Positions 8,801-19,066 of a stretch of DNA of 64,000 bases are shown here, in pieces; within the stretch, counting starts at the first letter, position 1; every line of letters starts with the position of its first letter. The notes below the pieces were generated by a model. The model did not search any database, was not told where the DNA came from, and worked only from the letters and a program-made list of their open reading frames with translations. The position numbers and the translations under genes are program-made. The stretch is from a virus. Lineage: Duplodnaviria; Heunggongvirae; Uroviricota; Caudoviricetes. The stretch is from the IMG/VR virus record IMGVR_UViG_3300017917_002560, positions 10,096 through 74,095 of that record; one strand, written 5' to 3'.

Positions 8801-11800
8801 CAGTGACATTGCCAGTTATGTTGAGAGGACTTACTACGTTGCCACTTAGACTCAATCCAACTGCATTTAAATTACCGCCTGTAATGTTTCCAGTGGCAGT
8901 TACCAATCCTGCGGTGTTAAAGTTTGCGCCGCGAACATTGCCAGATGCTGACACAACACCGGTTGCACTGACATCAGTGGTTAATACATTACCACCAGTG
9001 ATATTACCAGTGGCACTGACTTGACCAGTTGTAGTTACATTGCCACCTATGATATTAGCACCACTAGTAATAGTGCCTGTAGCAGTGATCAATCCACCAG
9101 TAACAATATTGCCACCTGTGACGTTGCCGCCGGCTGTGACTTCTGCGCTGGTAACCAAATTGCCACCAGTTACATTGCCCAAAGCTGATACTACACCAGC
9201 TGTTAATAAATTACCACCTTGTATGTTTCCAGCCACAGTGGCTGTTTGTACTGTTAATGCTTGATCAATGCCATCCAACAGCAAACTACTATCGTCGGCA
9301 AACACTGAACCTTCTAGATCGCCAACAAATCTCAGAGCTGTCATTACTCCAGCAGTGTTGATGTTGCCACCAACAACGTTGCCCAAAGCACTGACTGTGC
9401 CAGCAGTGTTAATGTTGCCACCTATGACATTACCACTAGCAGTTAGTGTTACTGCACTGACTTGTGCTGTAGCTGAAATACTGTTACCAGACTGTATATC
9501 GCCGGTTGCACTTACTATACCAGCAGTATTAATATTTCCACCAGAAATATTGCCTGAAGTGGTTATAGCCGATGTTGTGTTTATTGGGCTAATAATGTTG
9601 CCACTCAAACTCAAGTTAGTAGCATTTACATTTGTAGCCGTTACATTGCCAGATATATCTGCTTGTGAGGCAAACAATCTGTTATCAACTGCATCAACTA
9701 TTAGTGTAGAGTCATCAGCAAATACTGACCCAACCAAATCACCGCGGAATTCAGTAGCTGTTACTGTGTTGGTAATGTTAGCGTTTGCACCAAAAATGGT
9801 TGCTGTAGCTATAACATTACCTCCTGCGGTGACTTCACCAGCTGTGTTGATATTGCCACCTATGACATTACCAGTTGCTGTTACCGTGCCAGCAGTGGTC
9901 AAGTTGCCACCTATGACATTGCCGCTTACTGACGCTAGTCCAGCTGTGTTAATGTTGCCACCTATGACATTACCAGTAGCCAATACTTCGCCAGCAGTAT
10001 TGATATTGCCACCTATGACATTGCCGCTTACTGACGCTAGTCCAGCTGTGTTAATGTTGCCACCAACTACGTTACCGGTTGTGGTAATTGATCCACCAGT
10101 ATATGTGGTTGCAATGATGTTTGTAGCATTGACGTTTGCACTAGTAACATTGGCTACAGCACTGATTGAACCAGTACTGTTAATTGTTCCAGCCTGAACA
10201 ATACCACTTACTGTGGCGTTGTTTGTAAAGATTTCGTTGCTAACTGCATCAACAATCAAAGTGCTGTCGTCAGCAAATACTGAACCAACCAAGTCACCTT
10301 CAAATCGTACAGCACTCAAAGTGTTGTTGACAACAATGTCATCACCAGTGATTGTGCCAGCTACAGTGAGACCACCCGGATACATTGTAATAACACCCGG
10401 TACACCTGAGATATTACCAACAATATTTCCGTCAGCCAAAGGAATGTTAAGTTCTGTAGTACCTTGTGCAATCTTGATTGCGGCACCAACGTTGGAGCTA
10501 GCAACCACACCGGTCAAGCCAGCACCGTTGCCAATAAAGATACCGTTTATGGCAGTAATGTTACCAATGGCAGTGATTGCACCAGTTGTGTTAACGTTGT
10601 TGGCTTCAACGTTACCGGCTGTGTTAATATTGCCACCACGGATGTTGCCCACGGCACTTACAACACCTGCGGTATTGACGTTGCCACCTGCTATGTTACC
10701 AGACGCTGTTACGGTCGCTGTGCTTACACCATTTGTAACATTGACGTTGTTGCCGATCAAGTTGCCGGCTGCGCTGACAACGCCATTAGATAGTACATTT
10801 CCGCCAGTGATGGTATCAGTTGCAACAATTTGTCCAGCTGAAGAAACGTTACCACCTAAAATATTTCCAGTAGCACTCACTGTGCCACCTGTGGCCACGT
10901 TGCCACCTGTCACTGTTCCAGTGGCACTCACTGTGCCACCTGTGCTTAAACCACCAACTGTGGCTGTACCAGTGGCACTGATTACGCCAGATGTTCTTAA
11001 ATTACCACTGTCAACGTTGGCTGTAACGCTTAGAGCTGTGCCAGTGATGTTTGTGCCTGCAACATTGCCACCAGTGATGTTGCCTGTGGCGCTGATTGTT
11101 CCAGAAGTTTGTAAATTTCCACCAACCACATTGCCATCGGCGCTGACTGTGGTACCACGTACCAACACAGTGCCAACAATGTTGGCACCTGTAACATTGC
11201 CTGCTGTACTGATGTTACCACCAGTCACAGTGTTGACTGCTACAACATTGCCACCACGTATGTTGCCACCTGCGCTGACAACGCCTACTGTATTGACATT
11301 TCCGCCAGTGATGTTACCAACCGCAGTTAAGTTACCAGATGTGTTGATACCCAACGGTGTGGCATCAAGAATATTGCCTACACCGCTGATGATACCACTG
11401 ATGTTTCCGTTCACACCAGTAATACTCAAAACTGTTGTGCCATTACCTAACTGGCTGGCATTGATATTACCGCTGACAGTGACGTTGGACAAGAAGCCGC
11501 CGTCACCTAAAATATATTGTCCTACAACGTTACCAGTTGTGCTGAGTCCGGCTGCTCTAACTGTACCAGTGACATTGGCGTTGGTTACGATGTTTCCGCC
11601 TAGACTCAATGTTCCAGCACGAACCTGGCCAACTGCATTTAAGTTACCACCAACATTGGCATTGGCTCCAACACTCATTACTCCTAGCACACTGGCATTG
11701 CCATTGACTTGTGTATTATAAAGTGCAGTAATGTATCCGGCTTGTATATTGCCAGTGAATGTCTCTAAGAAACTTTGTACATTGGCATTGCTGTACTGAG

Positions 11801-17317: not shown

Positions 17318-17335
17318 GTCGTATAATACAAACAT

Positions 17336-17409
17336 GCGCTAGGCCCGTATGGTACGGGAGAAGCCTCTAAAACTTCCGATAGTGGGTTCGATTCCCATCT
17401 AGCGCACCA
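17336..17409 (+). tRNA. tRNA with CUA anticodon (amber suppressor)
   Basis: Acceptor stem GCGCTAG/CTAGCGC, A73 and encoded CCA. D arm CCCGT-ATGGT-ACGGG. Anticodon arm GAAGC-CTCTAAA-ACTTC (C31-A39 mismatch). T arm GTGGG-TTCGATT-CCCAT. TATAAT lies at 17322-17327. Confidence 0.88.
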
Positions 17410-17615: not shown

Positions 17616-18359
17616 ATGATGTATGAATCAAAAATGGTCGCCGCCATTAAAGTAAACGGCAAAGTCCTACGTGAATTCAAGGACACAGTGCATATTCCAT
17701 TCTCTAGCGAATATAGCATTTTACTAAAAAACCTCAACACACAACGAGCAGTAGTCAATGTTTTCATTGATGGCGAAAACATAGTACCCAACGGCCTAGT
17801 GCTCAATGCTGGACAAGAAATTGATCTTGAACGATCAATCAAAAACGGTAACTTAACCGAGGGCAATCGTTTTAAGTTTATTGAACGCACTGGCTCTGTA
17901 GAGGCACATCGTGGTGTCAAGCTCGAAGATGGTATTGTACGAGTTGAGTTCCAGTTCGAACAACCACGTCCAATTTGGACCAACATCACATATAGCAACA
18001 ATCAAATTTATCCACAAGGTAGTATCCTGCGTGGTATGAACAACAGTGTTGGCCCAGTTGGTTCAGTGACTTGTTCTGCTACATACGACAGCTATTCTGC
18101 ATCAGCTACATCAGCCGTTGCCAACGACGTTGGCATTACTGTGCCTGGTAGCAAAAGCACTCAGTCTTTTTCAACTACCTATGTTGGCGTCCTAGAATCA
18201 ACTAAGCACACCATGGTGTTTAAACTATTGGGTGGTGAAGCTGTTAAGCAAGCTGTCACTGTCAAGCACAAACCCAAGTGTGTCACATGTGGCAAGCAAA
18301 ATAAAGCAACGGCAAAATTTTGTACAGAATGTGGCACGGCTCTAGAAATTTTTGCTTGA
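17616..18359 (+). CDS. Hypothetical protein with a C-terminal zinc ribbon (CxxC...CxxC)
   Basis: SD AAGGAG before the ATG at 17616; C-terminal KCVTCGKQNKATAKFCTECG. Confidence 0.75.
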   Translation: MMYESKMVAAIKVNGKVLREFKDTVHIPFSSEYSILLKNLNTQRAVVNVFIDGENIVPNGLVLNAGQEIDLERSIKNGNLTEGNRFKFIERTGSVEAHRGVKLEDGIVRVEFQFEQPRPIWTNITYSNNQIYPQGSILRGMNNSVGPVGSVTCSATYDSYSASATSAVANDVGITVPGSKSTQSFSTTYVGVLESTKHTMVFKLLGGEAVKQAVTVKHKPKCVTCGKQNKATAKFCTECGTALEIFA

Positions 18360-18384
18360 CACAGTGCAATCAATCATATATAAT
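18356..18384 (+). promoter_or_regulatory. Perfect-consensus sigma70 (early) promoter
   Basis: TTGACA (18356-18361)-17 nt-TATAAT (18379-18384). Confidence 0.8.
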
Positions 18385-18517
18385 GAGCACATGTTAGTAA
18401 ATTATATCATACTAGTATAGGTCATTAAACACTTATTATCTGCCCGGACTACTCCTCGTCTGACCAGCTTGGATGTCGCGGGCTTTTTCACGACCGTAAC
18501 TTTTAAAGGAGATCAAA

Positions 18518-19066
18518 ATGTCGTAGATTGAATATGCTTGCAAGGACGTAGTGTTCCATTTTAACAAAAAACACTTAGAAGACGAGACCATTCCTATGTG
18601 GGTCTTAAAAACACATGGAGAAACTTTTTATGTTGATCATGTCGAAGCTGACATGTCATGGAGTACAAAAGAAACGCCCAATAACTCACACACCAAAGGC
18701 AGTATCAAGTTCAAAGAAGTGTTGCTTCAAATTGACGAGCACAACTGCGCAAAGTTAAGCAAGCTATCTGTAATTGACAAAATTCGCTTGCGCAATCAAA
18801 AGCTAGGCATTACTCGAATCTTATTTGGGTGGAACAGCGACATCCATAAAGCATTAAAAAACAATGAGTTCAAGCACAGCCCTTTTAAAAATGTCGAGGG
18901 AGCATGCGGCACTAGCTATGTTGTATGTGACTTGTTGAAAAAAGAAGAAGCAACGTTTGCTGGGTTGAAATATCATTTTCGTGTGCTGATGCCAAACGAA
19001 ATGTATTATCAGTTCTACGACAGCAAGGAAAAGTATATCGATGAGATATACGAAGACGACGACTAA
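18518..19066 (+). CDS. Hypothetical protein (182 codons) with an in-frame amber codon at position 3 (MS*IEYACKDVVFHFNKKH...)
   Basis: SD AAAGGAG-atcaaa-ATG TCG TAG ATT GAA TAT GCT TGC AAG GAC GTA GTG is in frame with the track ORF 18551..19066. Confidence 0.7.

Follow-up and report, generated by a model that had tools for sequence, protein, structure and literature searches.

The window considered here is a stretch of 64,000 nucleotides (nt) from IMG/VR record IMGVR_UViG_3300017917_002560 (positions 10,096 to 74,095 of that record), and it belongs to a fragment, 138 kb long, of the genome of a large freshwater phage. The gene at positions 18518–19066 of this window is probably gated by a suppressor: it carries an in-frame UAG at codon 3, which would be decoded by an amber suppressor transfer RNA (tRNA), tRNA(CUA), encoded by the phage itself, and the full-length protein is likely to depend on this tRNA. 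Such gating had been suggested by a first-pass annotation of the DNA, and it is now supported by the conservation of the early TAG, by the linkage of the gene to the tRNA and by covariation between the gate codon and the anticodon of the phage suppressor. Phage suppressor tRNAs are usually ascribed to wholesale stop-codon reassignment, and this module offers a concrete, conserved target for one of them, together with a simple lock-and-key mechanism. Its elements are the following, in window positions:

17336–17409, + strand: amber suppressor tRNA with anticodon CUA (ARAGORN; Rfam RF00005, 41.5 bits, gathering score 29)
18356–18384, + strand: sigma-70-type promoter TTGACA-17-TATAAT, a 12/12 consensus match, with boxes at 18356–18361 and 18379–18384
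18505–18511, + strand: Shine–Dalgarno (SD) sequence AAAGGAG, with a 6-nt spacer to the ATG
18518–18523, + strand: start codon ATG (18518–18520) and the single leader codon TCG
18524–18527, + strand: the gate, an in-frame TAG (18524–18526) plus the next A, which gives a UAG-A context
18527–18769, + strand: N-terminal 'FHFNK' domain, residues 4–84, beta-rich, delimited by conservation and an AlphaFold2 (AF2) model, absent from Pfam and PHROGs
18770–19063, + strand: predicted C-terminal ferredoxin-like (ACT/RRM-like) domain with an acidic tail (AF2 model, mean pLDDT 80)
19064–19066, + strand: TAA terminator of the gated gene, read from the sequence

The first-pass annotation had described the promoter, the AAAGGAG-6 nt-ATG TCG TAG arrangement and the open frame up to 19066, and all of them lie where it had placed them. 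The same holds for the CUA tRNA that it had noticed about 1.1 kb upstream on the same strand, and no other gene of the window has an internal in-frame amber codon, as had also been claimed. The TTGACA-17-TATAAT promoter is the sole 12/12 match in the scanned region, and a leader of about 130 nt separates it from the SD.

Three scans of IMG/VR returned about 190 loci, which correspond to 118 distinct protein variants once duplicates are removed. The TAG is kept in 113 of these 118 homologues, far more often than chance would allow, in the arrangement SD-ATG-(1–9 variable codons)-TAG, and the gated homologues reach down to about 40% protein identity and include both two-domain forms and single-domain forms of 80 amino acids (aa). 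An SD-like motif lies 4–16 nt 5' of the pre-TAG ATG in 106 of the 113, and initiation at ATG 18518 is supported by its SD spacing and by the conservation of this spacing. The leader peptides encoded before the stop differ freely (MS, MQ, MSM, MTQK, MTDLNPIAI and others). Directly behind it, the stretch Ile/Val-Glu-Tyr-Ala-Cys shows synonymous variation (ATT/ATC/ATA, GAA/GAG, TGT/TGC), and the invariant residues F13, F15, N16, K17, H19 and L20 all precede the first conserved Met. The residue following the TAG is Ile in 88 variants, Val in 13, Asn in 8 and Lys in some, the codon being AAA or AAC in some variants and never ATG. The alignment that the first-pass annotation had called for, with conserved residues expected on both sides of the TAG, thus bears it out for the position of the TAG near the start and for the residues behind it, but not for the codons before it, which are variable. 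The base 3' of the TAG is a purine in 111 of the 113 (A 98, G 13, C 2, T 0). A 3' purine is said to favour amber suppression in E. coli, a finding reportedly made by Bossi (1983) and by Miller and Albertini (1983). The homologues themselves terminate in TAA (72), TGA (34) or TAG (4).

A tblastn search of cultured phages found the same arrangement in Rhizobium phage RHph_I1_18, whose homologue starts ATG AGT GAG TTC ATG TAG and is followed by a tRNA(CUA) within about 10 nt; this homologue (L001:1477-1725) lacks any annotation. A glutamine seen at the gate position of proteins P0034 and P0039 was discarded as a sense codon: the DNA reads TAG there, and the source pipeline had translated TAG as Q.

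The five variants without the TAG (L041, L042, L051, L068 and L093) are informative in another way, since their start Met occupies the exact position of the TAG. The residue at the gate is therefore dispensable, and the gate is regulatory. As the stop always lies just past the start codon and the residue that it would specify is dispensable, a gate is favoured over drift.

The linkage between gene and tRNA was counted over the 103 variants that have at least 2.5 kb of upstream sequence. A CUA tRNA lies on the same strand within about 3 kb in 83 of them, upstream and no more than 500 nt away in 40 and on the downstream side in 9, and in eleven other contigs it is found farther off; the contigs in which none was detected are mostly small fragments. 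The co-occurrence of TAG and tRNA on which the first reading had been made to depend is therefore found. Pattern and Rfam searches recovered CUA tRNAs that ARAGORN had missed (L013, L037, L039, L040, L046, L070, L090 and L098). Several of these tRNAs escape ARAGORN, and in places Rfam, because they are structurally atypical, and phage suppressor tRNAs are therefore probably under-counted. Those at L013:2632-2701, L040:2105-2173, L046:2884-2955 and L098:2879-2950 share the unusual build of the tRNA of the window: the D loop is very short, the acceptor stem is set off from the D stem by one nucleotide, there is a C31.A39 mismatch and the CCA end is encoded.

About 50 distinct homologous CUA tRNAs adjoin the gated gene in other phages. 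Their anticodon loop is CUCUAAA or UUCUAAA, the exceptions being two with UUCUAAC. Their first base pair is G1-C72, and the three G-C pairs that mark the anticodon stem of an initiator are absent. The tRNA of the window has the CUCUAAA loop, an encoded CCA end and G1-C72 with A73. The CUCUAAA loop is of the type that favours efficient amber suppression in E. coli, according to the extended anticodon of Yarus. This is the single CUA tRNA of the 138-kb record and it is located outside the tRNA island; global alignment to 114 other phage tRNAs pointed to no clear isoacceptor parent.

The gate codon also follows the anticodon. In the L237 locus, where a tRNA(UUA) is present and a CUA tRNA is absent, a gene that fuses the peptidyl-tRNA hydrolase PTH2 to FHFNK starts ATG ACA CAC TAA, whereas its relatives start ATG ACA CAC/CAT TAG and come with a tRNA(CUA). 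The PTH2 gene of Sinorhizobium phage Phosso starts ATG AAG TAT TAG, and this phage has two CUA tRNAs. Its orthologue in Agrobacterium phage Atu_ph07 starts ATG ATT GGC GAA CAC TTT TGA, and the only suppressor of that phage is a tRNA(UCA) (PMC6102473), which was also found here. Of all the evidence available, this covariation speaks most strongly for a decoding of the early stops by the phages' own suppressors. The ochre-gated gene of L237 is set among Tad2-like and Acb2/Tad1-like anti-defence genes (L237:667-4595), and the tRNA-Gly(UCC) beside it is apparently split by an HNH-endonuclease open reading frame (ORF; 2290-2860).

The rest of the genome follows the standard code. Reading TAG as sense throughout the 138-kb record adds 187 residues to about 41,700, and the gated gene is the sole gene affected; the 118 ORFs of the record terminate in TAA (70), TGA (38) or TAG (10). 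The many in-frame TAGs and the large coding gain that mark code 15 are thus absent, and a phage-encoded tRNA(CUA), its other mark, is present. The two genuine TAG terminators of the window both have the context TAG-T, and another stop follows them in frame after 3 and 15 codons. The use of a single codon, distinct from genome-wide recoding, is therefore borne out as it had been claimed.

The mechanism proposed from these data would operate as follows. Ribosomes would initiate at the SD-preceded ATG 18518, read TCG and reach the UAG at codon 3, where release factor RF1 would compete with the phage tRNA(CUA). If RF1 wins, only a dipeptide would be made; if the tRNA, putatively charged by a host synthetase, decodes the UAG, a protein of 179 residues would result. 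Both the UAG-A context and the CUCUAAA loop would favour suppression. As the UAG would be decoded by the phage's own tRNA, protein output would be set by the amount and the charging of that tRNA.

Several observations weigh against this mechanism. The ochre and the opal covariation are each represented by one locus (L237 and Atu_ph07), and a metagenome scan with protein P0106 returned no further ochre-gated relatives of L237. About 10 of the 118 ORFs of the genome end in TAG, so an efficient suppressor would have a cost. The window tRNA itself is atypical: it scores 41.5 bits, has a C31.A39 mismatch and leaves one nucleotide between its acceptor stem and its D stem. Pfam, PHROGs and Foldseek give nothing specific on the function of the gated protein. 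In the L035 contig, which is 93% complete, the TAG gene is present and no CUA tRNA was detected. Conversely, all five TAG-less homologues have a tRNA(CUA) nearby or elsewhere in the contig. The tRNA is therefore not kept solely for the gate codon, and its partnership with the gene is seen to extend beyond the gate in these contigs. The last two observations would be expected if the early TAG were a leaky attenuator, read by near-cognate host tRNAs to give a scarce protein, with the phage tRNA(CUA) serving otherwise and lying nearby by inheritance; the UAG-purine context is, moreover, intrinsically leakier. This explanation is nevertheless unlikely, as it does not fit the tight same-strand adjacency, often of 30–500 nt, which is seen across very different phages and in both architectures, nor the switch of the gate to TAA or TGA in precisely those cases in which the phage tRNA has the anticodon UUA or UCA, nor an anticodon loop that is the one favoured by efficient E. 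coli amber suppressors.

It could also be argued that ATG-TCG-TAG is a regulatory mini-ORF and that the protein starts downstream and independently of the tRNA, either at GTG 18551 or by re-initiation after the TAG. Minigenes of two to four codons are known regulators, the bar minigenes of lambda among them, and the GTG at 18551 does exist, opens an ORF of 171 aa and has a counterpart at the same Val position in 48 of the 113 homologues. However, that GTG is just a Val codon for which other homologues have the synonymous GTC, GTT or GTA, and 56 of the 113 variants have no ATG, GTG or TTG between the TAG and the FHFNK motif, so neither a restart at 18551 nor a mini-ORF with a conserved main start of its own, both of which had been listed as alternatives, agrees with the homologues. 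The residues between the TAG and this Val are conserved through synonymous changes, the codon behind the TAG specifies Ile, Val, Asn or Lys and is never ATG, and the linkage to the tRNA would be left unexplained, as would the covariation of TAA with UUA and of TGA with UCA; the probability of a mini-ORF is consequently small. It is hardly conceivable that the tRNA(CUA) is of the initiator type and starts translation at the UAG itself. An engineered initiator tRNA(CUA) can do so in E. coli, but the phage tRNAs have a G1-C72 pair and lack three G-C pairs in the anticodon stem, and nearly all variants have an in-frame ATG with a well-spaced SD ahead of the TAG. It is also very improbable that the phage has just begun a genome-wide reassignment of TAG (code 15), in which the gated gene would have been recoded before the others. 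TAG is the rarest terminator (10 of 118), and phages have been proposed to gain a suppressor tRNA ahead of recoding (bioRxiv 10.1101/2021.08.26.457843), but here a single position of a single gene family is affected, in over 100 phages that have diverged and that differ in size and architecture, and other genes have stayed free of it. Finally, a stop as early as codon 3 would as a rule be taken for the mark of a pseudogene, the third alternative of the first-pass annotation, or for an assembly error. This reading, which has next to no probability left, is effectively refuted by the sequences: the TAG recurs in more than 100 independent assemblies and in cultured phages, with the downstream frame intact and under purifying selection. 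Because the TAG and the SD are conserved and start-like codons are absent from about half of the variants, pseudogene, assembly error and conserved internal restart can be set aside together, and decoding of the UAG by the phage tRNA(CUA) is the reading retained below.

The FHFNK family is defined by a block of motifs (FHFNK, PMW, STKETP and TKGS, in that order), all of which are present in the window protein, and a profile search found 173 representatives, 123 of them at E<=1e-10. The domain has about 80 residues and is found alone, in jumbo rhizobiophages at the C-terminus of a helical domain, as part of a PTH2 fusion protein, or encoded by a gene of its own that overlaps the stop of a PTH2-like gene. 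Protein P0067 is a PTH2-FHFNK fusion that matches Pfam PTH2 (PF01981, E 1.6e-7). The PTH2-like genes are amber-gated in the same manner (for example, ATG ACA CAC TAG), and CUA tRNAs lie next to them. Of the gated PTH2-like genes, 15 were compared with PF01981 and all 15 match it, and at 6 of 16 gated PTH2-like loci an FHFNK gene follows and overlaps the PTH2-like stop. In Phosso and Atu_ph07, the FHFNK gene lies two overlapping genes downstream of PTH2, in the same operon. The canonical PTH2 gene of the window phage's own genome (G000:129601-129969) has a normal start and is ungated. The possibility that the C-terminal domain of the window protein is a hidden PTH2 was rejected, as hhalign against the gated PTH2-like genes gave a probability of 0.5% and there was no Pfam match. 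By its sequence, then, this protein stands outside the PTH2 family, with which it is associated.

Structure comparisons are of a general kind. Foldseek searches of PDB and of the AFDB clusters matched the N-terminal domain only to small uncharacterised beta proteins, and VIA-align compared the C-terminal domain with 48,000 chains and reached Z <=5.3 to ACT/RRM folds, which indicates a generic fold only. Complex prediction for the operon pair of L252, a PTH2-like protein and a single-domain FHFNK protein, both with alignments, gave a score of 0.08, which counts neither for nor against a complex. The GenBank starts of the PTH2 genes of Phosso (XYS97424, L002:387-881) and Atu_ph07 (AUZ95035, L003:432-881) are placed too far downstream: a conserved N-terminal PTH2 strand lies upstream of them, behind the early TAG in Phosso and the early TGA in Atu_ph07. 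Gene callers miss or truncate gated genes of this kind, as in RHph_I1_18, Phosso and Atu_ph07.

Because the FHFNK domain is elsewhere fused to PTH2 or shares an operon with it, the gated protein probably acts in peptidyl-tRNA or ribosome housekeeping. A suppressor drives ribosomes past normal stops, which could raise the demand for rescue and for peptidyl-tRNA recycling, and it is conceivable, though doubtful, that the gate scales a rescue-type factor to the stop read-through caused by the tRNA. A timer, or a check of charging by the host, is equally compatible with the evidence. More generally, and still tentatively, amber, ochre and opal suppressor tRNAs of phages might have client genes (PTH2 and FHFNK genes) with matching early stops, whose gates would tie the production of rescue factors to read-through. 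If this is true, client genes would explain the presence of suppressor tRNAs in standard-code jumbo phages, a question that has been left open in print.

Genome-wide stop recoding with phage suppressor tRNAs has been published (bioRxiv 10.1101/2021.08.26.457843; PMC9523058; PMC13037316). In recoded phages, such as crAss-like and Lak phages (code 15, TAG to Gln; code 4, TGA to Trp), a phage tRNA(CUA) likewise overrides a host stop, and it has been proposed that the suppressor tRNA times the translation of certain genes (bioRxiv 10.1101/2021.08.26.457843; PMC9523058). In those phages, however, in-frame TAGs occur in tens to hundreds of late genes, and the coding density breaks down when code 11 is applied, whereas the window phage has one gene with one TAG within its first ten codons and otherwise uses the standard code. 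Viral read-through (Q-beta A1, murine leukaemia virus gag-pol, alphavirus nsP4) also combines an in-frame stop with a favourable 3' context and a longer product, but it relies on near-cognate host tRNAs, proceeds at a few per cent and yields two functional products in a fixed ratio. The gate of the window would use a cognate suppressor encoded by the virus, and its short product would be a variable peptide of 2–10 residues. The conserved stop, the coding sequence 3' of it and the favourable 3' base of read-through systems are all found here; two functional products are not. Since the short product has only 2–10 residues, the gate would be an on/off or dosage device. The prfB gene, which encodes RF2, offers another parallel, as its early in-frame stop couples a translation-factor gene to the state of the termination machinery; it does so by a +1 frameshift that senses RF2, whereas the window gate would act by in-frame suppression by a tRNA and its product is no release factor. 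The logic is that of laboratory amber gating (supE/supF, orthogonal tRNA/TAG switches), in which a gene with an early TAG needs a suppressor. These systems are artificial, whereas the pairing described here is natural, conserved and carried on one phage genome.

The closest natural comparison is with Xanthomonas phage XacN1 (PMC5852040) and with Atu_ph07 (PMC6102473), which are likewise large, rich in tRNAs and faithful to the standard code, and which carry CUA/UCA suppressors. The authors of the XacN1 study could not identify the targets of the suppressor (PMC5852040), and only general read-through was proposed for that of Atu_ph07 (PMC6102473). Both papers considered read-through of terminal stops only, whereas in the window phage, in Atu_ph07 and in Phosso a candidate target lies just past the start codon. 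XacN1 was not among the matches when cultured phages were searched by tblastn with a PTH2-like query, and a full-text search of the literature found no account of an early-stop gate that is confined to a particular gene and has a matching suppressor tRNA in the phage. If correct, the proposed gate would give the amber-suppressor switches of synthetic biology a counterpart in nature, would add a layer of phage regulation (of timing, of dosage or as a check of host tRNA charging) and would link suppression to peptidyl-tRNA hydrolase biology. The idea is directly testable, because carriers exist in culture (RHph_I1_18, Phosso and Atu_ph07).

Three further features lie around the gated gene:

17322–17327, + strand: TATAAT-like -10 box, 8 nt upstream of the 5' end of the tRNA, a possible tRNA promoter with a weak -35
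17616–18359, + strand: zinc-ribbon protein of 247 aa, between the tRNA(CUA) and the gated gene (Pfam Zn_Ribbon_1 at residues 221–243, E 2.9e-7)
18442–18488, + strand: hairpin resembling a terminator (GCCCGGAC...GTCGCGGGC) and carrying a UUUUU tract, in the leader after the promoter and ahead of the SD, recognised by sequence and fold

In L051, L068 and L093, a clear promoter is followed by the tRNA(CUA). The first-pass annotation was right about the promoter and the SD and had overlooked the hairpin between them, which could be an attenuator or a processing site. When the leader RNA from 18390 to 18560 is folded as a whole, its stability is not above that of shuffled sequences (z 0.99), and the Rfam scan matched the tRNA and no other RNA family. 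An equivalent hairpin with a U tract sits between the tRNA(CUA) and the SD in L051, L068 and L093, where it is accompanied by a short CTAGGTT-like motif.

The zinc-ribbon gene has an ordinary SD and ATG start, and its Pfam match covers the C-terminal part only of the 247-aa protein. In 35 related loci a homologue of it lies no more than 3 kb from the gated gene, either upstream or downstream, and the protein may be a third member of the module. In L039 (2193-2982), an ORF for a GIY-YIG homing endonuclease lies directly behind a duplicated gate leader (ATG TCG TAG ATC GAA TAT GCT TGT); an atypical CUA tRNA lies ahead of it, and the gated gene, still intact, starts at 2983. The conserved gate region may be a homing site. 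In L101, a small fragment, an atypical tRNA with anticodon CCA (Trp-like; 2748-2819) stands directly upstream of a TAG-gated gene, at the site of the CUA tRNA of its relatives; a CUA tRNA may lie elsewhere in that phage. Other structured RNAs lie a few kb at most from the gated gene of related phages: two GOLLD RNAs, one freshwater-2 RNA motif and one transfer-messenger RNA (tmRNA) of betaproteobacterial type (together at L101:339-801, L037:5256-5714, L013:2488-2568 on the - strand and L098:3791-4259).

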